DNA of 64,000 nt from an uncultured Spirochaetaceae bacterium (GCA_964488255.1 CAZAUR010000018.1:6596-70595); one strand, 5' to 3'; shown: positions 10,854 through 59,228, counted from the stretch's first letter. Numbers and translations: made by a program. The notes: generated by a model not told the origin, from the sequence alone.

Positions 10854-10860
10854 CCGGTGG

Positions 10861-29100: not shown

Positions 29101-29288
29101 GCTGGATCTAGTTGGCGGTCATCGATCCGAAGTCATCGGTGATACGGGTCTTCCGCGACGGTGCTTTTGAAGCGTACGAGCCGTCGTCCGAGACGTTGCT
29201 GGACGCGCCGTCCTCGCTCGAGTGCTACGAGAATTCAAGGGACCACGCGCCCATTCGAGCGGTGCCTTCGGCCGCTCCTCGATTCTGA
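26199..29288 (+). pseudogene. dabA: DUF2309/UPF0753 (DabA/MpsB, beta-carbonic-anhydrase-like subunit of an inorganic carbon pump), TAG at 29109-29111
   Basis: LPAQGSIEVFVHHNTLH, CCIDDREESFRRHLE, ETFGAAGFF, GHGSSSLNNP..SAYCCGAC.G..GG.NAR, LFLDRRAFL.SYD, INLEYYFS-like ISLEYYFS. Collinear coding continues 59 codons past the TAG. Confidence 0.92.
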
Positions 29289-30756: not shown

Positions 30757-31412
30757 GGAGCGACCTCGGCGACGATCAGGGCGAGACTGCCGAGCATGAA
30801 TCGATGCTCGTGACGCGGCGTGAATCCTGCCCGTCGGATCTCCTGCGCGAGATTCGCGATCGGCCGCGAGACTTCCCCGACGAGCAGCCATCCGAGCGCC
30901 GACTGTGGCAAGCGCCAAACGCGTTGGGCCCAACGCCGCAGTCCGGGTGGCGCGTGCACTTCGTCCGCCACCACCAGCCGCCCCCCCGTCGCCAGCAGCC
31001 GCGTGCATGCAGTCAGCACGAAGGTGCGCTCGTTGGAAGACATGTCCGACAGACACAAGGAGATCACGATTGCGTCGAAATCCGCTTCGGGCAAGCCATC
31101 GACCTCGGCCGCGGTCTGCTCGAGCCAGCGCACATCGGTCTCGCCGGCGGGGGAGAGTCGCTGGCGAGCCTGCTCGATCATGTCCGGCGATTGGTCGACG
31201 GCCGTGACCCGAGCGCCGCGGGCTACGAGCAGCGCGGTGACGGTTCCGGTCCCGGAGCCGATCTCGAGGACGCGGTCGCCAGGCTCGGCAACCGCCGCCT
31301 CGGTGGCAGCCGCATGGAGCTTCGCCACCTGACCGAACGTGATGAGACGCATCCCTGCGTCGTAGCGTTCGGGCGAGCCTTCCAACCAGCGCATGAGGGC
31401 GAGTGAACTCAT
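30753..31412 (-). CDS. Class I SAM-dependent methyltransferase (corrinoid-protein-associated, CpaM-like)
   Basis: LM..LE..P.RYD.G.RL.TFG N-terminus, motif I VLEIGSGTG, AVDQSPDM, LATGGRLVVADE. Confidence 0.88.
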   Translation of the reverse strand: MSSLALMRWLEGSPERYDAGMRLITFGQVAKLHAAATEAAVAEPGDRVLEIGSGTGTVTALLVARGARVTAVDQSPDMIEQARQRLSPAGETDVRWLEQTAAEVDGLPEADFDAIVISLCLSDMSSNERTFVLTACTRLLATGGRLVVADEVHAPPGLRRWAQRVWRLPQSALGWLLVGEVSRPIANLAQEIRRAGFTPRHEHRFMLGSLALIVAEVAP

Positions 31413-33540: not shown

Positions 33541-35001
33541 CTAATCCAACTCGACCGTAACCTGTTTCTCGGCAGCGGCGTGATGCGCGTCGGCCTCCTC
33601 GGCCTCCTCGGCCTCGTCAGGGGCGCGCAGGTCGCTTCGAAGCATGATGATCTCCTCGGCAGCGTGGTAGCGAGAGGCGACCCCCGGCTGAGGGTAGAGC
33701 CCACCCCCGAGCATCATCGCCGAGAGGACGATGATCAGGACACGCTCGCTCGGCCGACAACCCATCGTCGCGGTCGCCTCTCGGCGCACACCCGTGAATA
33801 CCCGAAAATACGCCTGCACGACGGCGATTCCGTTGAGCATCGCGGCGATGACGACGCTCAGTCCGATCAGCGGATACACGTCGACGGCGCCTTCGACGAG
33901 CAATTCGGCTCCGACGAAGCCGACGGTGCCTGGAAAGCCGACCGACGCCAGGCCGCTCAGCAGAAAGAAGCCTGAGATCAGAGGCGTGAGCTGCGACAGA
34001 CCGTGATATCCATCCAGGGAGAGTCGTCCCGTCCGGGCTTCGATGCAGCGAAGCGCGAGGCCGAAGCCGCCCAGCGAGATTCCTACGGAGAGCCAGACGT
34101 AGAGCGCTCCGGTCAAGCCAATCGGCGTGACCATCTCCAGCCCGACGAGCACGAGCGAAGCGTGGCTCAGGAACACGAAGCAGAAGAATCGGCGCGCCTC
34201 ATGTTGGACGAGCGCCATTCCGGCGGCGTAGACGGCCGTTGCGAGAGACACGATCGCGATGCCCTGCATGCCCCAGGCGGGCGCGACTGGCAAGACGAGC
34301 CTGACTACGGCGTACGCGCCCGTCATCGGGATGACGGCAAGGAGTGCGGTCCCGAAGCCCGCTCGTTCGAAGAGCTCGGTGATCCAGCCATGGAGGGGGA
34401 AGACTCCACTCCGCAAGAGCGCTGCGAGGGTCACAACGAGCACGCCGATCGAGGAGAAGTCTTCCGTCCCGATCATCGATTGACCGCCCGTCAAGCACAC
34501 CACGAAGAGTCCCATGTAGACCCAATAGAGCCGCGCAGACCGACCGCGTCTCTGGATCTCGAGCGCGGGAGGGATCGTCGCGAGCGAGAGGAGGACGACG
34601 ATCCCCCACGGTGCACGGCAGCTGAGCAGTGCCATCAGGATGGATTCCGACACCAGCGTCGAGACGAACGAGAATCGCCGCACTTTGGTCCGGAGTGTCG
34701 TGGCGATCGTCGCGAGGTAGAGCATCGCGCCCAATGGCAGAAGCGGCGCGCTCAACTCATCGACGACGAACAGGTCTGCGTGATAGAGGCCAAACGACTC
34801 GAGCCAAGGGTCGTGCGCTTCGAAGGCATGGAGTGTCGCGAAGTCGAACCATGCCCCGATCGCGAGGAACAGTGTCGCGGCGCTGACGATGATGCTCGTG
34901 CGTCGCACAGAGTCAAAGTCGTCTATCCTGGAGACGACGATGGCGCCCACCAGCGGCACGAACGTCGCAAGCTCGAGCCAAGGGAAATGCAGGCTCTGCA
35001 T
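33541..35001 (-). CDS. NuoM-like proton-translocating antiporter-type subunit
   Basis: About 13 TMs, LFVVDELSAPL, RSG.FPLH.W, LASVG.PGT.GFVG.ELL. Coupled to the upstream NuoL-like gene. Confidence 0.8.
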   Translation of the reverse strand: MQSLHFPWLELATFVPLVGAIVVSRIDDFDSVRRTSIIVSAATLFLAIGAWFDFATLHAFEAHDPWLESFGLYHADLFVVDELSAPLLPLGAMLYLATIATTLRTKVRRFSFVSTLVSESILMALLSCRAPWGIVVLLSLATIPPALEIQRRGRSARLYWVYMGLFVVCLTGGQSMIGTEDFSSIGVLVVTLAALLRSGVFPLHGWITELFERAGFGTALLAVIPMTGAYAVVRLVLPVAPAWGMQGIAIVSLATAVYAAGMALVQHEARRFFCFVFLSHASLVLVGLEMVTPIGLTGALYVWLSVGISLGGFGLALRCIEARTGRLSLDGYHGLSQLTPLISGFFLLSGLASVGFPGTVGFVGAELLVEGAVDVYPLIGLSVVIAAMLNGIAVVQAYFRVFTGVRREATATMGCRPSERVLIIVLSAMMLGGGLYPQPGVASRYHAAEEIIMLRSDLRAPDEAEEAEEADAHHAAAEKQVTVELD

Positions 35002-36389
35002 CAGGTGGAATCCTCTAGCGAACGCGGGTAGGGAACCACGGGACGCGGTTCATGGCTGGACTCACCGGAGAGCATCGACGCGACGGCATGCTCGACGCGA
35101 TCACACCATCGAAAGAACGACACGAACGGACCGACCACGACACGGTCGAGCATTGCATCCAGGTACCCGCGCTCGAACGCGAATCGAAAGAGGCCGCGAG
35201 GTGGAGTACGCGGATTGCTCGCGTCGGATTCGCGGACGTCGCCGATATGCAGACCCATCGCGTCCTCCAGGAGCTGATAGTCCTTGAGGACGGAAGGCGC
35301 CCTCAACAGCTGCAGGGTTCGGAGGCACGCATGTCCGATCATGTGAATCAGCGCGATGTAGTAGAGACCGAATCCGATCTCGATCGCGATGATTCCAACT
35401 TGGGTCAGTGACGCGAAAGCGAGCGCGCTCTTGACATCGGTCTGCGCTCGCGATGCGACGGACCCGAAGATGGCGGAGGCCAATCCGGTCGCGAGCACGG
35501 CGAGTTGGAGCGGTACCGAAGCCGCGATCAAGGGGCTCACGCGAAGGAGGAGAAAGGGGCCGAGGTGAATCGAGAGCGCCCCGTAGAAGATCGCGCTCGA
35601 TGGAGTCGGCCCCTCCATGGCGCGCGGTAGCCATCCGGAGAAGGGGACCATGCCCGACTTGCCAGCTGCAGCCACCAGCAAGAGACCCCCAACGAGGAGC
35701 GCCGCCGATGAATCGATGGCCGAGACACCCTCGGGCCATGATCCGACGCCCATCAGTTCTTCGAAATCCCCGGCACCGGTCATGCTGTGAAGCGTCAGCG
35801 CCGCGACGAGGAATGCCGCATCCGCGGCCCGGTAGATGGCCCAGACGCGCTGTCCGTTGCGCACGGGTCCAGCGCGCTCATGAAAGTAGGCGATGAGAAG
35901 CGCCGACGAGAGACCGACGAGCTCCCAACCGAGAAAGAGTGTCTCAATCGTGCCGGCAAGTGACGAAACCACCATCCCGAGCAGAAAGAGCGCGTACAAC
36001 AGGAAGAATCTCGAGTGTCCCGGTTCGCGATGGAGGTACACGCTGGCGAACGCACCGACCGTCCCGCAAAGAACGAAAGACAGGATCACGAAGGGAACGG
36101 ACAGTCGATCGAACACGAACTTCAGATGAAAATGAAAGTGCTCCTCTGGGATCGCCACCCAGTCCCCGATGTCGATCGGAACGTGGCGCAGGTCGAAGGC
36201 CAGCATCATCCCCAGAATTCCGATGGCGGAGCCGAGTCCGATCGCAATCGTGAGCTTCGTGAGCCATTCCTGCGCGCGCTCGCTGAGATTCGAGCTGAAG
36301 AGCGCGCTCGCTGCAAAGATCGTGAGCAGAGCCGCCGGACTCGTGATCGTCACGAGGCCGAGGATCCTGAAAGTGAAATCGATCGTCAT
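35001..36389 (-). CDS. dabB: NuoL/ND5-like membrane subunit (DabB/MpsA type)
   Basis: [66 protein letters not shown]. dabA lies 5.7 kb away. Confidence 0.8.
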
Positions 36390-36463
36390 TTGCTACGTCC
36401 ATTTCGCGCCGTCGCCAGTTCGGCTCGAGCCGTGCCCCGTCTTTCGTACGGATCGGGCGCCGT

Positions 36464-36505
36464 TCTACGACCTAAGACCTAAGACCTAAGACCTAAGACC
36501 TACGA
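36464..36505. repeat. Heptamer simple-sequence repeat (CCTAAGA)4 with degenerate flanking units
   Basis: TCTACGA-(CCTAAGA)x4-CCTACGA, 75 bp upstream of the dabB start. Confidence 0.9.
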
Positions 36506-37002
36506 TCATTCTGTTAGGCACCCGCGGCGCGACGTGCTTCGGCCATTCGAGCGGCGACTACCGGCGAGCCGCGAAGAGTATTGCATCGAAGTCCGCCATT
36601 CGATAGCCGTGAACCCCGCCGACTCGCGAGGGTGCGGTCATCAATGCCCGTCGAGCTTCGGGGGAGGAGGCTTCGAACATTCACGTACTCTCGAATCATG
36701 TGGTGCAGGCGACGCGCGCGGCCCGAGTGACGCATGCAATGCTCACCGCTGCGGCATTCGCATCGGCGGAGTTCTCGGATGTCCGTGAACGACGACGGCT
36801 CCGGCGCATCGAAGTCAGCCCGATGGCCGCGAGGTGAATCGAGCTCGCAGTCGCACGGCGCAGTCGCCCTGAAGGGGGTCGAGGACGGCGTCGCGACTGA
36901 AGTTGCCGACGAGGTTCCGTGCGAGAAGGTCGAATCGAAGTCGACCACGGAGTGCGGGCGTGACGTGTCCTCATAGGCAGCGCTCGAAGGAACCGCGTTG
37001 GT

Positions 37003-38496
37003 TCAATTCACCGGCACCCGCTGCAGATACGCGCTCGCTTCGCTGATCCACCGTGCAAGAAACTCGGGCGTGTCCAGCCCCAGCCAGACGGTCAAGGCCA
37101 TGCACAGCAAAATGGGGGCCACCATCGCGAAATCGTCGTCGAACCTCGACCGGCTGACCGTCCCTCCCTCTCCCTGGTCGCCGGCATCGCCCGACGTCGG
37201 ATTGGGCGCGGGGCCGAAGCAGCAGCCGATGATCGTATTGCCCATGCCGAAAAACACCAGAAGCAGCAGGATCAGGAACAGCACGCCCGCGGCCGTGTGA
37301 CCCGTAGTGAAGGCACCGCTGAGAATCTGGTACTCGCTCACGAAGGGGCCAAACAATGGCGAGCCGGTGATCGCGAAGAACCCGACGAGCAGGAGCGAGC
37401 CGCTCCAGGGCAGCCGTTTGAGTACGCCCTGCACCTCGTCGGTGGTCTTGCTTCCGTAGACCCGATGGATGTTGCCTGCCGCGAGAAACAATGCAGCTTT
37501 GCAGATGCCATTGTGAATCATGTGCAAGAGAGCTCCGCTCGCCGCGAGCCCTCCGATGCCCATCCCGAAGACGAGCATTCCCATGTGCTCGACGCTCGAA
37601 TAGGCCAACAGACGTTTGATGTCCTTCTGCCGCGACATGAACACCGCGGCCGTTGCCATCGACAAGACCCCCATGAAGATCAGCATCTGTCGAGAATAGA
37701 CGTCGTCATGAGCGATGTGGGCGATGTGGAAGAAACGGAGAACGCACAGGAATGCGCAACTCGTCAGGCCGCCCGCCAGCAGCGCTCCGACGATGCCAGG
37801 TGCTTCGCCGTAGGCGTCCGGCTTCCAGGTGTACATGGGCGAGAGGCCCATCTTCGTGCCGTAGCCGACCAGAAGCAGAACGAACGAAGCGTGTAGCCAT
37901 GGCCGCGAGAGTGCGTGTGAATGCTCGACCAGCTCGTCGAACATGAGCGTCGATTCCGAGCCCGCTTGCAACATCGAGTAGGCCAGGAAGAACGAGCCGA
38001 GTAGAGCCAGGGCGATGCCGACCGAGCAGATCATCAAGTACTTCCAAGTGGCTTCGAGCGACTTCGAGTTGTGCGTGAAGTAGATGCAAGGTGCCGTCGC
38101 CAGCGTCGTCGCTTCCATCGCGATCCACATCAATCCGAGGTGATGCGACAGGGTGACGAGCGTCATCGTCGCCAGCGCCAGCAGCAGGCAGGCGCAGAGT
38201 GCTCGATTGTCGCGCTCGGCTCTCGCCCGGAGGTAGCCTGGCGCGTAGGTTGACAGCAAGAAGAAGAGCAGACTCACGAACCCCGTGAACAGTCGGCTGA
38301 GTGGGTCGATCGCCAGCCAACGTTCGAACATCCACTGCTCTCCCTGCGCCAGCTGCCAAGATGTCAGCGCTAAGTGGGCCGCACCCGTGAGTGGCAGCAG
38401 CAATGGACGGACGCGATTCGACGGAATTGCGAACGCCAGCCCGGCGGCGAGGACCGGGAGCAGGATGAGGATCAGCAACATGAGAGTGCCATCCAT
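37003..38496 (-). CDS. hyfF: Hydrogenase-4 component F-like membrane subunit, copy 2
   Basis: HHLGLMW.AMEATTLA, SLEATWKYL, GYGTKMGL.PM, KRLLAYSSVEHMG, FFAITGSP. Confidence 0.88.
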   Translation of the reverse strand: MDGTLMLLILILLPVLAAGLAFAIPSNRVRPLLLPLTGAAHLALTSWQLAQGEQWMFERWLAIDPLSRLFTGFVSLLFFLLSTYAPGYLRARAERDNRALCACLLLALATMTLVTLSHHLGLMWIAMEATTLATAPCIYFTHNSKSLEATWKYLMICSVGIALALLGSFFLAYSMLQAGSESTLMFDELVEHSHALSRPWLHASFVLLLVGYGTKMGLSPMYTWKPDAYGEAPGIVGALLAGGLTSCAFLCVLRFFHIAHIAHDDVYSRQMLIFMGVLSMATAAVFMSRQKDIKRLLAYSSVEHMGMLVFGMGIGGLAASGALLHMIHNGICKAALFLAAGNIHRVYGSKTTDEVQGVLKRLPWSGSLLLVGFFAITGSPLFGPFVSEYQILSGAFTTGHTAAGVLFLILLLLVFFGMGNTIIGCCFGPAPNPTSGDAGDQGEGGTVSRSRFDDDFAMVAPILLCMALTVWLGLDTPEFLARWISEASAYLQRVPVN

Positions 38497-38677
38497 CTGG
38501 CTGATCGACTCGATGCGCCGATCGCTGCAGTCAGGTGCCGCTGCAGAAACTTCGACCGGCGGCCGCGAGACGATGTTGAGAACACGATGCGTGAAGGCGG
38601 AGACCCTCTTCGATGCGCCCGGCCCTCGATCTCGATGCAGGAATACGTCGCGCTGGGGGATCGGGTGGGTTCGCGAT

Positions 38678-40168
38678 TCAATGTGCGGCTTCCACGGCCA
38701 TCAGGATCCAGTCCCGCAAGAACGGTGGCGTGTAGAAACCCAGTATCACGACAAGCACCAGAGCAATGAATGCCGGCAGCGTGTCGCCGAGCCGCTCCCC
38801 CGCCCAATATGGAGGGTGCGTCGCAGTCGCGGGCGCCGAGCTCGAGGTCCACTCGCGCTTCTCGGCCGTGTCCGACGCATCCGACAGCTCGGGCGGTGGT
38901 CCAAGAGCGATTCGCAGCACTGTGTTCCCCATACCGACGAACACGAAGAAGAGCAGCGCGAGGAACACACAACCGGCCAGCGTCCGGCCCCCCGAGAACG
39001 CTCCGCCCAGCATCATGACCTCGCTCACGAACGGCCCGAATCCCGGTGCTCCGGTGATCGCGAAGAACCCGGCGACGAACGCCGCGCCCGACCACGGCAC
39101 GCGCCGCAGCACGCCCTTCATCTGCCGCATGTCGCGGGTGCCGTACGCGTGATACAGATTTCCAGCCGTGAGGAACAGCACGCCCTTGCACAGGCCGTTG
39201 TGCACGACGTGCAGCAGCGCGGCGATCACTCCGACGCCGCCCACGCCCAGTCCGAACGCCATCATGCCCATATGCTCGACGCTGGAATACGCAACCAGCC
39301 TCTTGATGTCCGTCTGTCGTCCGATCGATACTGCCGAGACCGCCATCGAGAATAGGCCGATGAAGATCAGCATCGGCTGAATGTCCCGTGCGTGTCCGGC
39401 CGCCGAGATGATCAGATACACGCGCAGAATGCCGAGGAACGCACAGTTCAGCAGGGCACCGGACAGGAGTGCGGAGACCACCGCTGGCGATTCGCCGTGC
39501 GCGTCCGGCAGCCACGTGTGCATTGGAGCGAGTCCCATCTTCGTGCCGTATCCAACCAGGACGAACACGAACGCTACGTGGAGCCAAGGCGCCGACAGCT
39601 CTCCAGCATGGACCATCAGGTCTTCGAACAGCAATGAGTGCAGTCCGCAGTGGAGAGAGGCGTATGCGAGACACAGCGTTCCCAGCAGCGCCAGCGCGAT
39701 GCCCACCGAGCAGAGCATCAAATACTTCCAAGTCGCTTCCAGCGCCCGCTGGGTGTGCTCGAAGTACACGCACGGAGCGGTCGCCAACGTCGTGGCTTCG
39801 ACGGCGATCCACATGAGTCCCAGGTGGTGCGCCGTGATCACAGCCGTCATGGACGAAAGCGACGCCAGAAGGCACGCGCACAGGATGCGGTTCGAGCGGC
39901 CGCCGTTGCTCCGCAGGTACGCCGGCAAGTACGTCGCCAGGATGAGAAAGAAGAGGCTGATGAACGACAGGAAGAAGCGGCTTTGTGCGTCGATTCTCAG
40001 CCAGCCCGGCGGTCCGGTCGGCAGCGGCTGTGTGACGGCAAACAGCGTCAGCAGCGCATGACACGCCGCTCCTGCCGGCACGATCCAGGGGCGCCACCGG
40101 TTCGATGGCACGGCCAGCGCCAGCCCCGCGGCGATCAGCGGCGTCAGGATCAGCACGGTTGACAGCAT
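38678..40168 (-). CDS. hyfF: Hydrogenase-4 component F-like membrane subunit, copy 1
   Basis: HHLGLMW.AVEATTLA, ALEATWKYL, GYGTKMGLAPMHTWLPDAH, KRLVAYSSVEHMG. Start placed at ATG 40168 by RBS. Confidence 0.9.
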   Translation of the reverse strand: MLSTVLILTPLIAAGLALAVPSNRWRPWIVPAGAACHALLTLFAVTQPLPTGPPGWLRIDAQSRFFLSFISLFFLILATYLPAYLRSNGGRSNRILCACLLASLSSMTAVITAHHLGLMWIAVEATTLATAPCVYFEHTQRALEATWKYLMLCSVGIALALLGTLCLAYASLHCGLHSLLFEDLMVHAGELSAPWLHVAFVFVLVGYGTKMGLAPMHTWLPDAHGESPAVVSALLSGALLNCAFLGILRVYLIISAAGHARDIQPMLIFIGLFSMAVSAVSIGRQTDIKRLVAYSSVEHMGMMAFGLGVGGVGVIAALLHVVHNGLCKGVLFLTAGNLYHAYGTRDMRQMKGVLRRVPWSGAAFVAGFFAITGAPGFGPFVSEVMMLGGAFSGGRTLAGCVFLALLFFVFVGMGNTVLRIALGPPPELSDASDTAEKREWTSSSAPATATHPPYWAGERLGDTLPAFIALVLVVILGFYTPPFLRDWILMAVEAAH

Positions 40169-40222
40169 TTGCGCCACCTCCGCTCAGCGGGCCGGCCCTC
40201 CGGCCCTTCGCGACCCGTATGC

Positions 40223-40903
40223 TCATTCTTTGAGACTCGACAGGTGTTCGATGCTCGCTTCGGGAAACGCCCGGCTCACGTGGTTGAAGATGATTCCCAT
40301 CACGAACACGCCGACGAACAGGTCCAATACGATGCCCAGCTCGACCATGATCGGCACGGCTTCGATCAGTAGCAGTCCGAAAATGAAGATGCCGTTTTCG
40401 AGCACGATGTAACCCAGCACCTGCCCGAGTGCCTCTCGGCGAGTGCTGAGCATCAGGAACCCGCACACGACCGTCGCGAGCGCGGCCGGGATCGGCAGAT
40501 GGCTGCCGTGCTCGGTCGCCATCGGCAGGTTGCGGGCGAACGCGATGGCGAGCACCGTGCCTAATGCGCCGATCAAGAGCGGCAGCACGATTCCCACCGT
40601 CGACGTCACCTGCGAACGCACGTCCGCGAGTCGCACGGCCCGCGACAGCAGCCGCGGAATCACCCATCCCTTGATTGCGACGATCGCGACCGTAAGCCCG
40701 AACAGACGCAGCATCGCGACGGCACCCATCTCATGTCCGCCCCCGAGCAGATCCGCATGCGCCACCGGATACAGAAGCCCCAGAAGTGCTCCCTGGATGG
40801 CCACGGCATTGATGACCTCTTTCAGACTGCTCACCGTCAGCACATAGAAGTTGAGCAGAAGGGCGATCACCAGTCCGGGGTCGAGTAGTAGGCCACTCAT
40901 CAT
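40223..40903 (-). CDS. hyfE: Hydrogenase-4 component E-like subunit
   Basis: AVAIQG.LL, KG.VIP.LL.RA, QVLGYIVLENGIF.FG, VELG..LDLFVGVFVMGI. Confidence 0.9.
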   Translation of the reverse strand: MMSGLLLDPGLVIALLLNFYVLTVSSLKEVINAVAIQGALLGLLYPVAHADLLGGGHEMGAVAMLRLFGLTVAIVAIKGWVIPRLLSRAVRLADVRSQVTSTVGIVLPLLIGALGTVLAIAFARNLPMATEHGSHLPIPAALATVVCGFLMLSTRREALGQVLGYIVLENGIFIFGLLLIEAVPIMVELGIVLDLFVGVFVMGIIFNHVSRAFPEASIEHLSSLKE

Positions 40904-40919
40904 CCAGTTCCATCCCGCC

Positions 40920-41849
40920 TCACGGATAACTCACCAGCAGAATCACGGCGAAGAGTGACACCACGCCTGACCCGATCAGGAGGGTCGGAACCTCCACCAT
41001 CTTCAATCGGGCCATGACCGACTCGACGGTTCCGATCAGCACGCCGACGAGCAGCGTTCCCAACAGGAATACCACCCAGTCGACGATTGGGCTCCCCGTG
41101 GCGAAGGGCAGAACGAGGTTCACGATCATTCCGGCGAAGACGAACAGTTTGATCGAGGCTCCGTAGACGATCGCTCCGAGAGCGGGTCCGCTGTGGTCGA
41201 GCACCATGACTTCGTGAATCATCGTCAGCTCGAGGTGCGTGTTCGGGTCGTCGAAAGGGATGCGCGAGTTTTCGACGAGCAGCACCGCGAACCAGCTCGC
41301 CACGACCAGCAGCAGCGGCGCGGCGGACGTCATCCAGCCGGTTGCCACCTCATCGCCCAACAGACCGCTCATCGAGAGCGACCCGCTGATTCGCGACAGC
41401 GCCAGCAGTCCGAGAAAGAGCACGGCTTCCGCCAGGCAGGCGAATGTCGCTTCTCGCACCGAGCCCATGCCCTCGAACGCGGAACCCGTATCGAGTGCCG
41501 CGGTCATCGTGAAGAAGCGTCCCAGCGCGAGCACGTATGCGAATAGAATCACATCGCCGGAAAACGACAGCGGAGCGCTCGCGTGACCCAGCGGCACGAT
41601 CAGCCCGGCAACCAGCGCCGTCGTCAATCCGACGATCGGCCCGAACCGAAACACCCACGTCGTCGTCTCGCTGAAGACGCTGTCCTTTCGCAGGAGCTTG
41701 GCGAGGTCGTAGTACGTCTGCAGGATCGGCTGCCCGCGCCGACCCCCGAATTTCGCCTTCGTCCGGTTGATGATCCCCAGCAGCAGGGGCGGGAACGTGA
41801 GAAGGGCGACCACGTGGATCAGCGTGTGAACGGAGAGGGAGTCGAACAT
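40920..41849 (-). CDS. hyfC: Hydrogenase-4 component C / NuoH-like subunit
   Basis: GRRGQP.LQ.YYDL.KLLRK, ALDTGSAFEGMGSVREA, ENSRIPFDDPNTHLELTMIHEVM.LDHSG. Confidence 0.93.
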   Translation of the reverse strand: MFDSLSVHTLIHVVALLTFPPLLLGIINRTKAKFGGRRGQPILQTYYDLAKLLRKDSVFSETTTWVFRFGPIVGLTTALVAGLIVPLGHASAPLSFSGDVILFAYVLALGRFFTMTAALDTGSAFEGMGSVREATFACLAEAVLFLGLLALSRISGSLSMSGLLGDEVATGWMTSAAPLLLVVASWFAVLLVENSRIPFDDPNTHLELTMIHEVMVLDHSGPALGAIVYGASIKLFVFAGMIVNLVLPFATGSPIVDWVVFLLGTLLVGVLIGTVESVMARLKMVEVPTLLIGSGVVSLFAVILLVSYP

Positions 41850-41967
41850 GGTCATTCTCCGTCTACCTCGCCACGTTGGCCCGAGCGCCGGCCGCGCGAT
41901 CCGTCCACAGTCGGCCGACGGCTACGTCGCCAATGATTTCGCCGTTTCTGGTCGGGACGGTCTGTCC

Positions 41968-43968
41968 TCATGGTGAACCTCCGGGCTGCCACATCAGCAA
42001 CCCGACGACGATCACCAGGATGTACAGCAAGTACGCGTGCAGGCTGCCCTGCTGGATGTACCTCGACAGGCCGAACAACCAGGTCAGGGCGCGCGTGACC
42101 GGAAGAACTGCGTTCTCCAGCACGGTGTCGTGAACGTGACTCTCGAAGGGCGTGTCTTTCGGGAAGATCACGTCGATCTTCGGGCGATGCACGACTGGTC
42201 GCAGAGCCCAACCGAACAAGTCGACCAACCATTGCGCGAACGAACTCGATGAGTACTGCATCCGCGGCGACGGAGCCGCATAACCGCAATCCCATGTCGG
42301 TGACGACGGCGAATTGCGCACGCGCAGCAGCAGAGCGCTCGATCCGACCAGCAGGAGACCGATCAATAGCGCCGCGATGATGCTCACCGGCCCGAGCGGT
42401 GTGAGGCTGTCCAGTGGGACACCGGAGATGTCGGCCGAAGTTCCCACTGTGGCATTCGCCCACGCCCTGGCCGCGTCGTCCAGCACTGGAGCGAAGAGCG
42501 ACGGGGCGACTCCGATCAGCACGCAGCATCCGCTCAGCACCCACATCGGACCCGTCATCGCGCGACCGGACTCGTGCGCGTGAGCGGCCTTGTCTCCGCG
42601 CGGCGCGCCCAGGAACACGATCCCGTACACCTTGACGAAGCACGCGACCGCGAGCGCTCCGACCAGGGCGAGTCCAGGCGCCGCGAGCGCTGCGGCCGAG
42701 GCCAGCGACGTCGGTTCCGCCTGAATCGTCTTGAACAGGCCGAGATAGATCATCAACTCGGACACGAACCCGTTCAGCGGAGGCAGACCGCAGATCGCCA
42801 CGGCTCCGATCAGGAAGCACGTCGCGGTCACGGGCATCCGTCGACCGAGCCCGCCCATCACGTCCAGCTCGCGCGTTTCCATGCTGTGGACGACCGACCC
42901 GGCTCCGAAGAACAACAGCGACTTGAATAGCGCGTGATTCCAGACGTGCAGAAGCGCGCCGCCGATCCCCAGCAGCACCCACTCTGCGTGCCCGGTGGCA
43001 CGGCCGATCAGGGCCAGGCCCAGGCCCATCACGATGATTCCGATGTTCTCGATGCTGTGGTAGGCCAGCAGCCGTTTGAGATCGTGCTGGCCGATTGCGA
43101 ATGCGACCCCGAGAATCGCCGAGATCGTTCCAGCCGCGAGCGTGATCATCCCCCACGACAGCGGAATTTCGGGGAAGAAGGACGCGGTGCGAAAGATGCC
43201 GTAGATGCCCATCTTGATCATGACGCCGGACATGACGGCCGACACGTGGCTCGGCGCCGCGGCGTGCGCACCCGGCAGCCACACGTGCATCGGCATCAGC
43301 CCAGCCTTGGTCCCGAAGCCGAAGAGGCCAAGAGCGGCCATGATCACGGCCGCGGTCGTCGTCGAACTGGGAAGCGTCGAAAAGGCGAACGATCCCGTCT
43401 GCGAATAGAGCAGCGCGAACACGCCGAACGCGGACAGCGTGGCGAAATGGCTGGCTGCGATGTAGAGCCACGACGCCTTGCGGGTTTCTTCGATGTGGTC
43501 TTCCGTCGCCACCAGGAAGAGCGCGGAGACGGCCATCGTTTCCCAGCCGAGCAGAAATAGCAGGCCGTCTCCTGCCGCGACCAGCGTGATCATCGCAGCC
43601 GTCATCAGCCCGAGAAACAGCGATACCCGCCGAGCGTTGGGCGCCCCGTCTCCCTGCGGCCAGTACTGCAGCCCGTAGATCGAAGCGAGCCCGCACACCA
43701 GCAGAATCGGCACGAGGAAGAACGTCGACAAGCCGTCCATCGCGACGATGAAATCGAATCCGGCGATCGGCGTCGGCAGCAGGAGTGGGTCAGCCGGACC
43801 GTCTGCGTAGAAGGTCCACACGGCACCGAGTCCACAGCCACAACCGGCCACGTTGAGAAGGGTCGCCAGCCTCTGCCCGATGCTCGAGCGCACCGGCAGC
43901 AGCAGCGCAGGAAGGCCGCTCGAGGCGGTGAGTGAAGCGGCGAGAACGACGAGCGCGTGAGCGTTCAT
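41968..43968 (-). CDS. hyfB: Hydrogenase-4 component B-like subunit
   Basis: FL.GWE.MA, GFGTKAG..P.HVWLP.AH.AAPSHVSA.MSGVMIK, DLKRLLAYHSIENIGII, GLPPLNGFVSE, MQYS..SF. Start placed at ATG 43968. Confidence 0.93.
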   Translation of the reverse strand: MNAHALVVLAASLTASSGLPALLLPVRSSIGQRLATLLNVAGCGCGLGAVWTFYADGPADPLLLPTPIAGFDFIVAMDGLSTFFLVPILLVCGLASIYGLQYWPQGDGAPNARRVSLFLGLMTAAMITLVAAGDGLLFLLGWETMAVSALFLVATEDHIEETRKASWLYIAASHFATLSAFGVFALLYSQTGSFAFSTLPSSTTTAAVIMAALGLFGFGTKAGLMPMHVWLPGAHAAAPSHVSAVMSGVMIKMGIYGIFRTASFFPEIPLSWGMITLAAGTISAILGVAFAIGQHDLKRLLAYHSIENIGIIVMGLGLALIGRATGHAEWVLLGIGGALLHVWNHALFKSLLFFGAGSVVHSMETRELDVMGGLGRRMPVTATCFLIGAVAICGLPPLNGFVSELMIYLGLFKTIQAEPTSLASAAALAAPGLALVGALAVACFVKVYGIVFLGAPRGDKAAHAHESGRAMTGPMWVLSGCCVLIGVAPSLFAPVLDDAARAWANATVGTSADISGVPLDSLTPLGPVSIIAALLIGLLLVGSSALLLRVRNSPSSPTWDCGYAAPSPRMQYSSSSFAQWLVDLFGWALRPVVHRPKIDVIFPKDTPFESHVHDTVLENAVLPVTRALTWLFGLSRYIQQGSLHAYLLYILVIVVGLLMWQPGGSP

Positions 43969-44457
43969 CCGCATTCTCCGGAGTCTGCACTCTGCGATCG
44001 GTGTGATCGGTGTGATCGAACAGGAACGCGGCGGCCATTCCCGGTCGCCTGGGCGCTGCCATTTCGGCAGGCCCCCCGAACCGTCGAACATCGAACGGCA
44101 AGTTCACAAGACACTCGGCAGATTCGCAGTCTCATCTCCGACTCATCGCTTTCGGACCAATCCACCAGCTCGTTCTCCGTTCCGCGAGTGAAAACGCCCC
44201 CGTCAATCGTCGTAGTCCGTCCTGGTCGACTCGATCTCTCCCTGAATCCTGCTCGGGCGACGCGCGCCGCCTGCAAGCCGGAGCGCTGAGACCGGTAGAG
44301 TCGCTAGTATCTTCCAGGTCAGTCAAGACGACGCCTCGCAGGCGCGCAGGCACGGCTTTACTTCGACCGATGGATTCCCGCCGTGAAGGCTGGTGCGCGT
44401 CTCTGCTCGTGAGTATCGTATGCTTCCAGCCGTCTCCGCCAGCGTCAGTCGACTTGA

Positions 44458-44473
44458 TGTCATGTAGTTCACA
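44458..44473. promoter_or_regulatory. CRP/FNR-family box candidate in the divergent hyfB / PTS-IIA promoter region
   Basis: TGTCA-tgtagt-TCACA has one mismatch to TGTGA-N6-TCACA. Confidence 0.3.
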
Positions 44474-44628
44474 GTCGGGCAATACAGCGTTCATGGACGA
44501 CCGCCATTGTATTGCGACGCCTGAGCACGCTCGTCCTGGCAGCCATGCTCGAGGGAGAATCGACCGGCAAGGGGAGACGTGCAGTCCGCGACTGAGGGTC
44601 GTGTGCTTGGACGAGTGAGGGCACTTCG

Positions 44629-45330
44629 ATGGAACTCAGTCTCAAACAGGCGGCAGAGGTGTTCGACGTTCCCGAGCGAACCATCGTCGACTGGATACGC
44701 GACGACGGGCTGCCGGCGGAGCTGGTCTCCGATCAATACCGGTTTCACCGAGCGGACTTGCTCGAATGGGCAGCCACTCGCAGGCGCGCGTTCAAGTCCG
44801 AGATCTACCTGCGCGCGAACGGCGATCTGACGGAGTCGGGCACGCATCTGGCCGACGCGCTCGAGCACGGAGGTGTGTTGCGTGACGTGGTCGGTTCGAG
44901 CCTCCGCGACTGCCTGTCCGTGGCGCTGGAAGGCTTGCCGATTCCGGACTCGCTCGGGCTCGACGCGCTGCTCGATCTCATCGTTCAACGCTCGGACGGT
45001 GGTTGCATCGCGGTCGGAAATGGGGTCGGGATACCGCATCCGCGAAGACCCATACTGCTCGACGTACCTGGACCTCACGTGCGCCTGTGTTATTTGAGAG
45101 AGCCACTCGACGTGACGGGGCCGGACGGCCGCGGCGTCGACAAGCTGTTCGTGATGCTCAGCCCGTCCACACACGAGCATCTGCAGCTACTCGCACGCCT
45201 CGGGGCCGTGCTCCAGACCGAATCAGTCCAGCAGGCGCTCGAGCAGAAGCTGGACCTCGACCCCCTGTGTCGCGTGATCCGCGATGCTGGTCGGAGCTTT
45301 CATGAGAAGACACCCGCTTCATCCACATAG
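44629..45330 (+). CDS. Excisionase-type HTH + PTS EIIA (nitrogen-regulatory-like) fusion
   Basis: LSLKQAAEVFDVPERTI..WIR...LPA......YRF.R.DLLEWA, then GVGIPHPR (phospho-His) and HL.LL.RL. Confidence 0.88.
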   Translation: MELSLKQAAEVFDVPERTIVDWIRDDGLPAELVSDQYRFHRADLLEWAATRRRAFKSEIYLRANGDLTESGTHLADALEHGGVLRDVVGSSLRDCLSVALEGLPIPDSLGLDALLDLIVQRSDGGCIAVGNGVGIPHPRRPILLDVPGPHVRLCYLREPLDVTGPDGRGVDKLFVMLSPSTHEHLQLLARLGAVLQTESVQQALEQKLDLDPLCRVIRDAGRSFHEKTPASST

Positions 45331-45434
45331 CCCAGGCGCCCATCCGACCCCACCGTCGGACGGTGGTCTCCGGCTTGCGGCAGAGCGAGGCACATCTGTG
45401 CGCTTTGGCGAGCGTGCCTTAAGCGGATCCGACG

Positions 45435-46976
45435 ATGCCCTCACCTGACGATCTTCTTCGGACGTCGAACTGCCAGCCGGTCGCGCTGGCGGACGTACCG
45501 CTGCTCGACCGCGATGGTTTTGCCGCCTGGCTGTCCGGAGAACTCGACGGCAATTCCAGCGGACTGTCCGCATTGTTCGGCGTCCCGCAGTCTGCACATT
45601 CGGTGCGCCTGTACGCGGTGACGAATCATCCGAGAACGGCCGAGCTACGATTCATGGCCACGGACGTTGGCGAATCGTACGTCGCGTTCACACCGGAGAT
45701 CCCTCGGGCACACTGGTTCGAGCGCGAGATCGCCGAACAGTGGGGCATCGTGCCCGAAGGGCATCCGTGGCTGAAGCCGATCCGCTCTCACCACGCGTAC
45801 GTGAAAGGCCGCGACGCGTGGGGTCGCTCCTCGGAGGATGCGATCCTGCCCAGCGTTCAGCCGCCGGGTACGGACTACTTCAAAGTCACAGGGGATGAGA
45901 TCCACGAAGTCGCAGTCGGCCCCGTGCATGCCGGTGTGATCGAACCCGGTCATTTCCGCTTTCAGTGCCACGGCGAGAACGTGTTCTCGCTGGAGATCGA
46001 ACTCGGCTTCCAGCATCGCGGAATCGAGCGGGCTCTCCTCGGAGGTCCCGACAAGCGGTCGCTGCATCACATGGAAACACTCGCCGGTGACACGACGATC
46101 GGACACAGCACGGCGTATAGTCAGTTGCTGGAGGGACTCGCTGGAATCGAAGCACCCTTGCGCGCGCAATCGATCCGCTGCGTGGCACTGGAACTCGAGC
46201 GGTTGGCGAATCACACGGGCGATCTCGGTGCTCTGGCGATGGACGTCGGCTTCCTGCCCACCTCCTCTTTCTGTGGACGGCTGCGCGGCGACTGGCTGAA
46301 CGCCTCGGCGCTCATCTGCGGAAACCGGTTCGGACGGTCGCTGGCGCGGCCCGGCGGATCGCGATGGGACATCGACGAGGGCAAGGCCGAAGAACTCGTG
46401 GCGCGGACGAATGCTGCATTCGAGGACGTGACCGGAGCGGTGGAATTGCTGTGGAATACGCCGAGCGTGAGATCTCGATTCGACGGCTGCGGCGAGATCC
46501 CACGAACCCTCGCCGAAGAGCTCGGACTGGTCGGCATGGCGGCGCGGGCCTGCGGCATCGGCCGCGATGCACGCCGTGATTTTCCATTCGGGATCTACCG
46601 GTTCTCCCAGGTGCCGACTGCGATCTGGCATACGGGGGACGTGTTCGCTCGGGCCTATGTTCGCTGGCTGGAGATCGATCGATCGGTGCCGTTCGTCCTC
46701 GAGCAGCTCCAGTCGCTCCCTCGTGGCGAGATCCGTCGCGATGTCGGTTCACTACAGCCGGACGCGCTGGCGGTCTCGATCACCGAAGGCTGGCGTGGCG
46801 AGATCTGCCACGTGGCGATCACGGATTCAGACGGCCGATTCGCTCACTACAAAGTCGTGGATCCGAGTTTCCACAATTGGATCGGCCTCGCGATGGCGCT
46901 GAGAAACCAGGGAATCAGCGACTTCCCAGTCAACAACAAGAGCTTCAATCTCAGCTATTGCGGACACGACCTCTGA
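45435..46976 (+). CDS. HyfG/HycE-like (NuoC+D) large subunit lacking NiFe ligands (Ehr type)
   Basis: AHWFEREIAE.WG..P.GHPWLKP.R, VAVGPVHAGVIEPGHFRF, LG.QHRG.E, EGWRGE, KVVDPSFHNW. L1 reads ETLAGDTTIGH and L2 reads SFNLSYCGHDL, with no CxxC pairs. Confidence 0.9.
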   Translation: MPSPDDLLRTSNCQPVALADVPLLDRDGFAAWLSGELDGNSSGLSALFGVPQSAHSVRLYAVTNHPRTAELRFMATDVGESYVAFTPEIPRAHWFEREIAEQWGIVPEGHPWLKPIRSHHAYVKGRDAWGRSSEDAILPSVQPPGTDYFKVTGDEIHEVAVGPVHAGVIEPGHFRFQCHGENVFSLEIELGFQHRGIERALLGGPDKRSLHHMETLAGDTTIGHSTAYSQLLEGLAGIEAPLRAQSIRCVALELERLANHTGDLGALAMDVGFLPTSSFCGRLRGDWLNASALICGNRFGRSLARPGGSRWDIDEGKAEELVARTNAAFEDVTGAVELLWNTPSVRSRFDGCGEIPRTLAEELGLVGMAARACGIGRDARRDFPFGIYRFSQVPTAIWHTGDVFARAYVRWLEIDRSVPFVLEQLQSLPRGEIRRDVGSLQPDALAVSITEGWRGEICHVAITDSDGRFAHYKVVDPSFHNWIGLAMALRNQGISDFPVNNKSFNLSYCGHDL

Positions 46977-47055
46977 CATCGAATGTCGTGTGAGCGGCGA
47001 CCGACGAGGGATCGCGCAGGCTCGATACCCGACGCTCAAAACTGGACGAGAACCC

Positions 47056-47826
47056 ATGCTCAAAGTCCTTCGCGAACGCATGAATCAGGGCTACCGGACG
47101 ATGTCCTGGCCGGCCGGCGCCCCCCCCGAGATGCCCGACCGCTACCGCGGTCTGCCGGCGATCGACGCGACCAGGTGCCCCGACGGTTGCCGCGAATGCG
47201 TCGACGTGTGTCCCACCGACGCCATCGAGCGCGCACCGAGTTCGATGAAACTCGATCTGGGCAAGTGTCTGTTCTGCACCGATTGCATCGACGCCTGCCC
47301 GGAGGGCGCGATCGAATTCAGCAGTGAGTTTCGCATGGCGTTCGACAAGCGCGCGAGTCTCGTGCTCGACGGCAAGGCGGTCGAAATGGCTCAGGCGCTC
47401 GACGAGAAGGCGCGCCGGATGTTCGGGCGCTCGCTGCAGTTGCGGCAAGTCAGTGCGGGTGGCTGCAATGCATGCGAAGCCGACATCAATGTCCTGGGGA
47501 CGATCGGCTTCGATCTCGGCCGATTCGGTATCCACATGGTCGCCTCGCCGCGCCACGCCGACGGTTTGGTCATCACCGGACCCGTTACCGAGAACATGCG
47601 ACTGGCTCTGGAGAAGACCTACGCGGCGACCCCGGCGCCGAAATTCGTGATCGCCGTCGGGGCCTGCGCGATTTCCGGCGGGCCCTTCCGGGACCACCCC
47701 GAGCAGAACAATGGCGCCGACAGCGTTCTTCCTGTCGACCTGTACATCCCGGGCTGTCCACCACACCCGATGACGATCCTCGACGGCCTCTTACGGATGC
47801 TGGGCCGGGTCGAGGAACGGGTCTGA
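47056..47826 (+). CDS. 2x[4Fe-4S] ferredoxin fused to NuoB/HyfI-like small subunit
   Basis: CPDGCRECVDVCP, CLFCTDCIDACP, GGCNACE, SPRHADGL..TGPVT.NM, VGACAISGG, YIPGCPPHP. Confidence 0.92.
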   Translation: MLKVLRERMNQGYRTMSWPAGAPPEMPDRYRGLPAIDATRCPDGCRECVDVCPTDAIERAPSSMKLDLGKCLFCTDCIDACPEGAIEFSSEFRMAFDKRASLVLDGKAVEMAQALDEKARRMFGRSLQLRQVSAGGCNACEADINVLGTIGFDLGRFGIHMVASPRHADGLVITGPVTENMRLALEKTYAATPAPKFVIAVGACAISGGPFRDHPEQNNGADSVLPVDLYIPGCPPHPMTILDGLLRMLGRVEERV

Positions 47827-47853: not shown

Positions 47854-49305
47854 ATGACGACGAAGGACTCGAACGAGAATCGTACGGCGCAGGAGGCTCC
47901 CTCGGGCTCGAGACTGGCTCGGGATCATGATGAGCTACGAAGCCGAGATTCGGCCAAGCCGCGACGACCACATGTCGTCATCGTGGGCGGCGGATTCGGC
48001 GGCCTCGCGGTCGCGCGCGGGCTCGGAGGTTCTGCGGTCGATGTCACGCTGATCGACAAGAGAAATTTCCACCTCTTTCAGCCCTTGCTCTATCAAGTGG
48101 CGACCGGCGCGCTCTCTCCTGCCAACATCGCGACTCCACTTCGCTGGTCGCTCAGGCGCTACCGCAATGTCGACATCGTCCTCGGCGAGGTCACTGGCTT
48201 CGACGTCGACGAATCTACGGTCGAGCTTCGCGGCGACTCGATCCGCTACGACCATCTCGTCGTCGCTTCGGGGGCCACGCACAGCTATTTCGGAAATGAC
48301 TGGAGCGGAATGGCGCCAGGTCTCAAATCTCTCGAGGACGCGCTGGAGATCCGCCGACGCGTTCTGCTGGCGTTCGAGCGCGCCGATCGAGCGCGCGATC
48401 CCAGCGAGCGTGCAGCGCTTCTCACGTTCGTGATCGTCGGCGGCGGACCGACGGGGATCGAGCTCGCGGGAGCGCTCGCGGAGATCGCCCACCACACGCT
48501 CAGCCGCGACTTTCGACACATCGATCCATCGGAAGCTCGGATCATGCTCGTCGACGCTGCTGAGCACGTTCTGTCCGCCTATCCCCGGGAGTCCGCGCGA
48601 CAAGCCAAATCGGCGGTCGAGGAACTCGGCGTGGAGGTACGAGTGCATACGAGGGTCACGTCGATTCGGCAGGACGCGATCGATCTCGAGACCGAGATGG
48701 GCACCGAGTCGATCAGCGCGGGAACGATTCTTTGGGCGGCCGGAGTGCAGGCGTCCTCACTCGGGAAGTCGCTCGCCGACCCGACGGGCACCGCAGTAGA
48801 TCGTGCAGGCCGAGTGCGGGTGTCCGCCGAGCTGACCCTGGCGGGGTATCACGAGATTTCCGTGATAGGCGATCTGGCCGCTTGTGCGAACGGTGAATCC
48901 GGCTCGCCGCTGCCGGGAATCGCGCCGGTCGCGATGCAACAGGGAACCTACGTGGCCGAGCGGATCCTGGCAGAAGGGGCGGGTCGACAAATGCCGTCCT
49001 TTCATTACCGAGACCGGGGCATGCTCGCGACGATCGGACGCGGAAGAGCCGTTGCGGCACTCGGGCGCGCGCGGCTCAGCGGTCTGCCGGCCTGGCTGAT
49101 CTGGATATTCGTGCATCTCAGAGAGTTGGCGAGAGCCGACAATAGAGTCCTCGTCTTCGTTCAGTGGGCGTGGAGCTACCTCACTTACGAACGCTCCGCG
49201 CGATTGATCACGAATGCGGACAGAGATTCGAAGTTGTCGACTGGAACCCGGAACACGAGACCGGATGGGGATCGCGGTGCGAAACCGCATGCGTCACCGC
49301 CGTGA
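47854..49305 (+). CDS. ndh: Type II NADH dehydrogenase (NDH-2) family FAD oxidoreductase
   Basis: GGGFGG, FQPLLYQVATG.L, GLK.LEDA, GGGPTG.ELAG, WAAGV, GD.A, AP.A.QQG. Confidence 0.92.
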   Translation: MTTKDSNENRTAQEAPSGSRLARDHDELRSRDSAKPRRPHVVIVGGGFGGLAVARGLGGSAVDVTLIDKRNFHLFQPLLYQVATGALSPANIATPLRWSLRRYRNVDIVLGEVTGFDVDESTVELRGDSIRYDHLVVASGATHSYFGNDWSGMAPGLKSLEDALEIRRRVLLAFERADRARDPSERAALLTFVIVGGGPTGIELAGALAEIAHHTLSRDFRHIDPSEARIMLVDAAEHVLSAYPRESARQAKSAVEELGVEVRVHTRVTSIRQDAIDLETEMGTESISAGTILWAAGVQASSLGKSLADPTGTAVDRAGRVRVSAELTLAGYHEISVIGDLAACANGESGSPLPGIAPVAMQQGTYVAERILAEGAGRQMPSFHYRDRGMLATIGRGRAVAALGRARLSGLPAWLIWIFVHLRELARADNRVLVFVQWAWSYLTYERSARLITNADRDSKLSTGTRNTRPDGDRGAKPHASPP

Positions 49306-58573: not shown

Positions 58574-59228
58574 GCGAATACCCTCGACCGCGGACGGTTC
58601 GAATGGCCGACCCGACCCCTTCGGCTTCGAGCTTTCGGCGCAGCCGGTTCACGTGCACATCGACGACGTTCGTCGCGGGCTCGAAGTCGTAGCCCCAGAC
58701 TTCCCGCAGGAGGCTGCCCCGATTGACGATCTGGCCGTCGGAGCGGGCGAGCATCGCGAGCAGACCGAACTCGATGGGGGTCAGTTCGAGACGACTGCCC
58801 CGCGCGGCAGCGACGCGCCGCACCATGTCGATTTCGAGCGCTCCGACCGAGAAGCGCGTCGCCTCGAGTCGGGGGCGCCGCTCGAGTGCGCGGAGGCGCG
58901 CCGCGAGCTCGGCGAATGCAAAAGGCTTGACGAGATAGTCGTCGGCTCCGCGATCGAGGCCCTCGACGCGATCTTCGAGCGCTCCCCGCGCCGTCAAGAT
59001 CAGACAGGACGCTTCGGGATGGCGGTCACGGATCTGCGTAAGGACGTCGTAACCGGACCCGTCGGGCAACCCGAGGTCGAGAACTGCGGCATCGAGCGAG
59101 CGGGTCTCGAGCGCGATCGCCGCGGATGCGACGCCGTCGGCAATGAGAACCTCGTGGCCTTCTCGCTCCAATCCTACGCGAAGCGCCTCGGCCGTCTCCT
59201 TGTCGTCTTCCAGAACGAGGATCTTCAT
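58566..59228 (-). CDS. OmpR-family response regulator (CusR/CzcR-like)
   Basis: ILVLEDD, LDLGLPDGSG, GADDYLVKPFAFAEL.ARL, TNVVDVHVNRLRRK. Confidence 0.95.
   Translation of the reverse strand: MKILVLEDDKETAEALRVGLEREGHEVLIADGVASAAIALETRSLDAAVLDLGLPDGSGYDVLTQIRDRHPEASCLILTARGALEDRVEGLDRGADDYLVKPFAFAELAARLRALERRPRLEATRFSVGALEIDMVRRVAAARGSRLELTPIEFGLLAMLARSDGQIVNRGSLLREVWGYDFEPATNVVDVHVNRLRRKLEAEGVGSAIRTVRGRGYSLA

Follow-up and report, generated by a model that had tools for sequence, protein, structure and literature searches.

A NiFe-less Ehr locus with two hyfF genes and nearby DAB1-type genes in a Pirellulaceae-like planctomycete

Ehr (Ech/energy-converting-hydrogenase-related) complexes, relatives of hydrogenase-4, take their name from work on Geobacter, and no function has been assigned to them in the time since. 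The described cluster of Geobacter sulfurreducens (GSU0739-0745) has seven genes and shares with the locus studied here NuoL/HyfB-like, NuoH-like, HyfE-like and HyfF-like membrane subunits, a large subunit without the NiFe cysteines, and a small Fe-S subunit. We analyzed such a locus at positions 37003-47826 of a 64,000-nucleotide stretch of metagenomic DNA (GCA_964488255.1, CAZAUR010000018.1:6596-70595, deposited as an uncultured Spirochaetaceae bacterium; "the window" refers to this whole stretch), which carries a second hyfF paralog (F2) in addition to the hyfF gene of its relatives (F1). The window has a G+C content of approximately 63%, and its closest relatives are metagenome-assembled genomes (MAGs) labeled Rhodopirellula, Pirellulaceae and Planctomycetaceae. 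Judging from subunit families, alignments, trees and gene order, the locus appears to encode a complete, intact NiFe-less Ehr complex of the Geobacter EhrABCDLS type in a Pirellulaceae-like planctomycete, and we assign a probability of roughly 60% to the core reading that Ehr is a pump in which F2 serves as a working extra module.

Relative to the Geobacter cluster, the third antiporter-like module here is a second HyfF/EhrD in place of a second HyfB/EhrA, the locus consists of two divergent arms instead of one operon, and DAB1 genes lie nearby. The published Geobacter labels, which include "EhrA-1" along with EhrC, EhrL and EhrS, fit metagenome loci with tandem hyfB genes in the order EIIA-B-B'-C-E-F-G-HI, and the Geobacter cluster probably has this tandem EhrA-1/EhrA-2 layout, with both the orthology and EhrA-2 itself read from the published labels alone.

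Escherichia coli Hyf/Hyc (structure 7z0s) offers another comparison, with HycE of formate hydrogenlyase as the best sequence match of the large subunit and HyfB, HyfC, HyfE and HyfF as the best NCBIfam models of the membrane subunits. In contrast to Hyf/Hyc, the locus is without NiFe ligands and without HyfA, HyfD, HyfJ, HyfR, FdhF, HycI and Hyp genes; HyfH and HyfI are fused, and a gene for an EIIA and helix-turn-helix (HTH) protein stands where a sigma-54 activator would be. Hyf itself has three antiporter-like subunits, HyfB, HyfD and HyfF. A further parallel is the "2M" form of complex I, in which, as Chadwick et al. reportedly described in 2018, a second NuoM arose by duplication and more ions per electron pair were proposed to be moved; the extra subunit of the window likewise goes back to a duplication.

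Composition of the locus and its catalytic arm

All eight genes of the locus are intact. The minus-strand membrane arm begins with ehrA/hyfB (41968 to approximately 43971), a NuoL-type antiporter-like subunit with a C-terminal extension that matches PF00361 and the NCBIfam model for hydrogenase-4 subunit B (576 bits, covering 3-665 of 669); its longest open reading frame (ORF) reaches 44091, and alignment with 14 orthologs places the likely start at MRMNAH around 43971, near M41. This gene is followed by ehrB/hyfC for a NuoH-like membrane subunit (40920-41855; PF00146 NADHdh, E 4.6e-34), an ehrC/hyfE-like gene for a small membrane subunit (40223-40903; NCBIfam HyfE, E 2.3e-14), F2 (38678-40177, 499 residues, starting at GTG 40177 or ATG 40168; PF00361, HyfF 327 bits) and F1 (37003-38496, 497 residues, HyfF as best model). 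On the plus strand are the EIIA-HTH gene (44629-45330), whose EIIA Ntr-like product matches HTH_17 and PTS_EIIA_2 among Pfam and NCBIfam models; ehrL (45435-46976), encoding a fused NuoC and NuoD/HycE-like large subunit recognized by Pfam, NCBIfam and an alignment to HycE; and ehrS (46990-47826), in which a 2x[4Fe-4S] ferredoxin of the HyfH/NuoI type is fused to a NuoB/HyfI-like domain (Oxidored_q6 and Fer4 families; NCBIfam NuoB, HyfH and NuoI). Pfam and NCBIfam assign all seven structural genes to Ehr-type subunit families, with every NCBIfam score of the locus proteins below the equivalog cut-off. The original prediction, made by a model from the sequence alone, had placed hyfB-C-E-F-F' on the minus strand, divergent from HTH-EIIA, large-subunit and small-subunit genes on the plus strand, and had called the whole a NiFe-less, Ehr-type relative of hydrogenase-4; gene calls and family matches agree with the first claim, and subunit families together with the lost NiFe ligands agree with the second. 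At the level of sequence, that prediction proved correct throughout.

Species-representative genomes from several phyla (Planctomycetota, Verrucomicrobiota, Lentisphaerota, Methylomirabilota, Thermodesulfobacteriota, Binatia and others) yielded at least 574 stretches with relatives of the large subunit, and all eight locus genes were mapped onto 80 such loci. Our scans of genome collections were based on short peptide patterns, and the frequencies given below are sample counts rather than a census.

In the alignment to HycE, the N-terminal CxxC falls on A217..T220 of EhrL and the C-terminal CxxC on S507..G510, and not one of the four NiFe-ligand positions holds a cysteine in any of 130 EhrL relatives (130/130), as expected from the claim that the large subunit lacks both Ni-binding motifs. 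Other residues are strongly conserved instead: E214, G218, D219, H224, H459 and D512, like the 13 C-terminal residues (NKSFNLSYCGHDL), show no or almost no variation, H511 is nearly invariant (124/130), and C178, C280, C295, C458 and C509, all absent from HycE, are kept in 124-129 of the 130 family sequences. From this pattern, the former NiFe pocket of EhrL appears not to have decayed but to have been rebuilt into another conserved Asp/His/Cys site, and the Asp/His/Cys set could provide a new metal or cofactor site in place of NiFe. In EhrS, the four cysteines of the NuoB-type cluster and the eight of the ferredoxin domain are all retained across 75 sequences, and the peripheral arm is predicted to keep a chain of three [4Fe-4S] clusters. 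A pocket that is rebuilt and strictly conserved, with the Fe-S chain kept, argues for unfamiliar redox chemistry in Ehr. We picture Ehr as a putative redox-driven ion pump that would take its electrons from ferredoxin or a different low-potential donor, with EhrL as a candidate non-hydrogenase catalytic site.

An AlphaFold2 model of EhrL (predicted TM-score 0.82) had HycE (7z0s_E) as its best fold match, with a TM-score of 0.78; per-residue confidence (pLDDT) fell below 50 over the invariant loop of residues 137-192 and again at the C-terminus. In sequence, the EhrL C-terminus aligns with the end of mature, processed HycE, which we placed by the HycE cleavage site; EhrL ends where processed HycE ends, and C-terminal maturation by Hyp proteins and a protease would therefore not be needed. 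Gene calling based on G+C at third codon positions (GC3) yielded 45 genes in the window, and the 43 proteins scanned against Pfam (two short calls of 98 and 101 residues were omitted) included no match to Hyp families, with small genes missed by GC3 or hyp genes elsewhere in the genome being possible; this fits the earlier statement that the window holds no hyp maturation genes. The sole HypC-like N-terminal motif in the window sits in a 31-codon non-gene. The features by which group 4 [NiFe]-hydrogenases are recognized, namely two CxxC motifs, maturation genes and a cleaved C-terminal extension, are missing from the locus, and Ehr is expected to have no hydrogenase activity. With respect to complex I, the quinone ligand Tyr87 of Nqo4 aligns to the invariant G218 of EhrL, and members of the NuoE, NuoF and NuoG families were not detected in the locus by Pfam or NCBIfam.

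The two hyfF genes and the number of antiporter-like modules

F1 and F2 are 53% identical over 491 residues and both contain GTKMGL and HNG.CK, which bears out the description of two intact, diverged HyfF copies. The single hyfF of complete divergent-type relatives scores approximately 650-825 bits to F1 and 450-520 bits to F2 (phmmer), and because of this higher score the distal copy F1 is taken as the ortholog and F2, in the interval between hyfE and F1, as the extra gene. Novipirellula aureliae, a cultured member of the Pirellulaceae, has the single-F form (P0025, P0179). We also considered F2 as an equivalent of HyfD and rejected this, as both copies score far higher on HyfF than on HyfD models. 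Adjacency of hyfE and hyfF is kept in 74 loci, and in 51 of 52 species-representative loci hyfE leads to one hyfF with no second copy between them. The exception (L016, 2399-3289, minus strand) has a 296-residue in-frame F2-type remnant between hyfE and F1 from which approximately residues 150-355 are deleted, and thus shows F2 loss in progress with the channel core removed.

Orthologs of F2 (P0122-P0128, 67-74% identical) were found on metagenome contigs. On all five contigs that reach past the end of F2, this gene is flanked by hyfE on one side and by a second antiporter-like gene on the other: a full F1-type hyfF follows in L081, L086, L087 and L088, and the gene in L085 is cut by the contig end. 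L089 stops 0.7 kb after F2, and we found no F1-type ORF there. A scan of Joint Genome Institute (JGI) metagenomes with an F2 pattern returned two F2-type genes among 233 relatives, so that tandem hyfF is rare in Ehr loci by both surveys (51/52 single; 2/233 in the JGI scan).

Neighbor-joining trees of HyfF with 200 bootstraps recovered an F2 clade (100%) and a divergent-type F1 clade (100%) within one Pirellulales-type clade (100%), in which F2 branches outside a group of F1 and the collinear Pirellula type (87.5%). The F2a and F2b subclades mirror F1a and F1b, identities in matched genome pairs are 69-75% for F2-F2 and 71-75% for F1-F1, and rough ratios of nonsynonymous to synonymous substitution rates (dN/dS), with saturated dS, are 0.09-0.20 for F2 and 0.07-0.14 for F1. 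These patterns indicate that F2 is an ancient paralog that predates the radiation of the clade and was co-inherited with F1 under similar purifying selection. After the duplication F2 appears to have been lost repeatedly while F1 diverged, with the window among the few lineages in which both copies would still work. Recent duplication and foreign acquisition, the two origins between which a HyfF tree was to decide, are both ruled out by the tree and the matched-pair divergences; the result is instead an ancient pair with repeated loss of one member.

The TM5 Glu, TM7 Lys, TM11 Lys and TM12 Glu (TM, transmembrane helix) are kept in all F1- and F2-clade members. Among 16 fixed differences between F1 and F2, 13 are located at residues 225-261, the TM7b-TM8 channel core, and F2 matches other phyla at most of the fixed differences, including the whole 225-245 block; in TM7b-TM8, F2 has the ancestral-type WLPDAH and F1 the derived WKPDAY. 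Since the differences cluster in the channel core, F1 and F2 probably differ in ion handling and are not redundant.

Two full-length tandem hyfB genes are present in 20 of the 49 metagenome loci with a readable hyfB region, comprising L103 and 19 further loci of L089-L168. Those of L103 (4381-6390 and 6445-8448; 669 and 667 residues) share 50% identity, and HyfB is the best-matching model for each. Three antiporter-like subunits are therefore a common state in Ehr and hyfF duplication is a rare route to it, and the B, F, F' set described earlier is nothing special for an Ehr complex. By the original prediction, three such subunits would match those of complex I (L, M, N) and could raise the H+/e- ratio, a gain that is hypothetical here. 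Having been raised twice independently, by duplication of hyfB and of hyfF, and lowered many times, the number of antiporter-like modules in Ehr looks adjustable. From gene order, F2 may be the third antiporter-like module of a single membrane arm arranged as EhrB/C, EhrA, F2, F1, and would then give the complex-I-like channel number that tandem EhrA would give in other Ehr complexes. Taken by itself, the hyfF duplication is a modest finding, and the link between Ehr and DAB genes is the better lead.

DAB1-type genes and the competing readings

DAB1 is a DabA-DabB-DabC heterotrimer in which CO2 hydration is driven by proton motive force, and in the original work DABs were without redox partners. 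The window and its relatives have dabA with Zn ligands along with a DabB-like gene and, as the third gene, a NuoM-like one. The dabB-like gene (35001-36389, minus strand), for a NuoL/NdhF-type antiporter-like protein, lies on the strand of F1, 613 bp farther downstream, and matches PF00662 and PF00361 as well as the DabB2 chain 9rd0_B and NuoL chains. The NuoM-like antiporter-like gene in the dabC position (33541-35001, minus strand; PF00361, 81 bits) is matched by NuoM chains at approximately 190-445 and has Arg in place of the TM7 Lys; it encodes a full-size PF00361 protein, in contrast to the half-size, Pfam-less DabC of T. albus. The gene for DabA, the beta-carbonic-anhydrase-like subunit (26199-29111, plus strand; PF10070, E 1e-226; 9rd0_A, E 8.5e-64), retains the Zn ligands C..D, H and C, its CID...GHGS...CGAC motifs aligning to 9rd0_A; it is 6 kb from the dabB-like and NuoM-like genes and on the opposite strand, so that the DAB1 module of the window is split. 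By ending at 37003, the original prediction took in the Ehr genes correctly but left out two further antiporter-like genes (33541-36389) that belong to this DAB1-type module with dabA. A (CTAAGAC)5.4 heptamer microsatellite (36465-36502) sits in the DNA that separates the dabB-like gene from F1, where short-read contigs of all three runs that hold the window start or end and high-depth 34-base records map; the adjacency of these two genes rests on a repeat-bridged join, yet it is seen in all three runs.

Among the relatives, dabA directly follows ehrS in eight, in six of them with its start at -29 to +36 bp relative to the ehrS stop, and in seven the dabB-like and NuoM-like genes come next. 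Their single operon reads EIIA-HTH, ehrL, ehrS, dabA, dabB, dabC, plus SulP. L006 and L007 have the DAB block at the opposite flank of the membrane arm, and L079 has a piece of it. The association of Ehr and DAB has therefore survived several rearrangements, that of the window among them. A SulP transporter, usually fused to P-II, accompanies the DAB block in 11 loci, after either dabC or ehrS; its ortholog in the window (13178-14806, minus strand) matches residues 23-552 only of the fusion and is without the P-II domain.

This gene order suggests that Ehr activity may be functionally tied to the uptake of inorganic carbon or to pH homeostasis, in which DAB and SulP would take part as well, and a soluble-arm operon that runs into dabA-dabB-dabC and SulP-PII makes a role in inorganic carbon or pH a testable hypothesis. 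A bolder form, which we consider improbable, is that Ehr and DAB1 constitute one machine or a tightly coupled pair in Pirellulaceae-like planctomycetes, a non-photosynthetic counterpart of cyanobacterial NDH-1MS, where CupA-NdhD3-NdhF3 sit on a complex-I core; the likeness is one of gene content, a redox pump with a CO2-hydrating module. Electrons passing through the three Fe-S clusters to the NiFe-less EhrL site would power proton extrusion, and this extrusion would either drive vectorial CO2 hydration by DabA or remove the proton that the hydration yields, with F2, DabB and the NuoM-like DabC as possible connecting or tuning modules. If true, such coupling would be the first physiological role for Ehr complexes and would contradict the view that DABs never pair with redox complexes. 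DABs are described as redox-independent, stand-alone and driven by proton motive force, whereas the Ehr-DAB linkage here is one of gene order only, and we found no literature that links the two.

Several observations weigh against the reading of Ehr as a pump with F2 as its third module and a tie to inorganic carbon. Ehr-DAB synteny is limited to the Pirellulaceae-like clade (0 of 80 loci of the second set), is broken up in the window itself, and could reflect ancestry more than function. The position of F2 in the membrane arm follows from gene order only; reportedly, complex I with a second NuoM has a lengthened NuoL lateral helix that spans the extra subunit (again Chadwick et al. 2018), and when HyfB proteins of genomes with and without F2 were aligned, the HyfB of the window included, no F2-linked insertion or lateral-helix extension was seen. 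The F2-F1 spacer is 181 bp in the window compared to 6 bp in L081 and L086, and most relatives have lost F2 with nothing visible to compensate for it, which points to its being dispensable for core function. Finally, the window sequence was present in three DNA runs only, all subsurface metagenomes, and none of the RNA runs searched holds it.

Alternatively, F1 and F2 could be condition-dependent distal subunits that are used one at a time and differ in ion specificity or in docking partners such as DabB/DabC, in the manner of the NdhD/NdhF isoforms exchanged in cyanobacterial NDH-1. In favor of this, the fixed differences are concentrated in the TM7b-TM8 channel core, HyfB has no helix extension for an extra subunit, F1 alone serves most relatives, and spare clusters of a B-C-E-F membrane arm (L082/L083, L028) suggest that membrane modules are exchangeable. 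We find this reading doubtful, however, as F2 and F1 are in tandem within one operon wherever this is readable, only 6 bp apart in L081/L086, which favors co-production; no promoter or terminator signal separates them, and tandem hyfB shows that the family builds three-module arms. It is less probable still that one hyfF copy works outside Ehr, serving a DAB-type module or another transporter or acting by itself as a cation channel. The dabB-like and NuoM-like genes that follow F1 on the same strand and a neighborhood rich in ion transporters could be read in that way, but F2 contigs with enough flank (L081, L086, L088) have no DAB genes beside the pair, DAB-bearing relatives are mostly without F2, solved DAB complexes contain only DabA and DabB, in some cases joined by DabC, and HyfF models match both copies best.

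A functionless, redundant F2 on its way to loss would account for its absence from 51 of 52 species-representative loci and for the degraded copy in L016. This is very unlikely given the intact reading frame, a dN/dS of approximately 0.1-0.2 with ortholog identity equal to that of F1 in matched pairs, channel residues that are invariant in eight of eight F2-clade members, and an origin older than the split of lineages that are approximately 66% identical in EhrL. The tandem could in principle have been created by assembly, considering the metagenomic source and the contigs that break at the nearby microsatellite; with copies that are just 53% identical, single contigs of two independent runs that cross the F2-F1 junction without differences, and the same tandem in unrelated samples, this artifact, named in the original prediction as one that would undo it, is ruled out for practical purposes. 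We thus retain F2 as a probable working third module of the Ehr membrane arm.

Layout, regulatory signals and neighboring genes

Outside the Pirellulales-like group, the genes form a collinear series (EIIA-HTH, B, C, E, F, G, HI). Fourteen complete close relatives have, as in the window, an F-E-C-B membrane arm divergent from EIIA-G-HI, and in L002 and L004 B-C-E-F-EIIA-G-HI are on one strand. The divergent layout is ordinary for the Pirellulaceae-like clade of the window and no peculiarity of this locus; the expectation that Ehr loci are usually collinear with one hyfF is correct for the wider family, and the divergence of the window's arms is shared by these 14 relatives. In L082, L083 and L084, hyfB-C-E-F genes without an adjoining large or small subunit, followed by TrkH, CorA and a stand-alone PTS-EIIA, are divergent from a second, collinear EIIA-B-C-E-F operon.

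The EIIA-HTH gene heads the operon, or the soluble-arm operon, in most loci and in several phyla, and the phospho-accepting His motif G.G..IPH is present in the window and kept in 56 sequences; the gene is thus a hallmark of this Ehr family. We rejected EIIA-HTH as a subunit of the complex: the only fusion to the large subunit (P0055, 745 residues, on a 141.7-kb contig) has an out-of-frame-like linker, is probably a MAG frameshift error, and was not used as evidence. Across 36300-45500 we found no sigma-70-like sites, and terminator-like sites were no commoner than in shuffles; sigma-54-like sites were at chance level, with none inside the divergent spacer. Repeats in 43900-44700 were short and at chance level only, and nothing in the window matched an Rfam family.

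An OmpR-type regulator and kinase are found between the Ehr arms in many relatives (9-15 loci) and in L081. The window has two OmpR-type response-regulator/histidine-kinase pairs (23239-25277, plus strand; 57155-59228, minus strand), one of which may be the ortholog. In Verrucomicrobia-type loci (L038, L039, L044, L045, L047, L057, L058, L062, L063 and L071), a Rex-like gene (Put_DNA-bind_N and CoA_binding) lies 3' of the Ehr operon on the opposite strand, which hints at NADH/NAD+ control of Ehr.

Directly beyond the locus, 27 bp after ehrS, is an NDH-2 gene (47854-49305, plus strand), whose place is often taken by dabA or SulP in relatives. NDH-2 as an electron partner was rejected, since the gene follows ehrS in the window only and in none of the surveyed loci, and its position is regarded as coincidental. 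Between dabA and the dabB-like gene is an HgcAB-like fusion (29662-31056, minus strand) of a corrinoid domain and a 2x[4Fe-4S] ferredoxin, scoring 393 bits on NCBIfam NF043039 against a cut-off of 285. The ion transporters of the neighborhood are TrkAH (TrkH/TrkA at 9408-12318), SulP, CLC and a Na/Ca exchanger, and a Porin_O_P gene is located at 14970-16235. Pieces of an IS66-family transposase (LZ_Tnp_IS66, then DDE_Tnp_IS66) mark a mobile element at 4018-5595 on the plus strand, the neighborhood of which is rearranged relative to related genomes.

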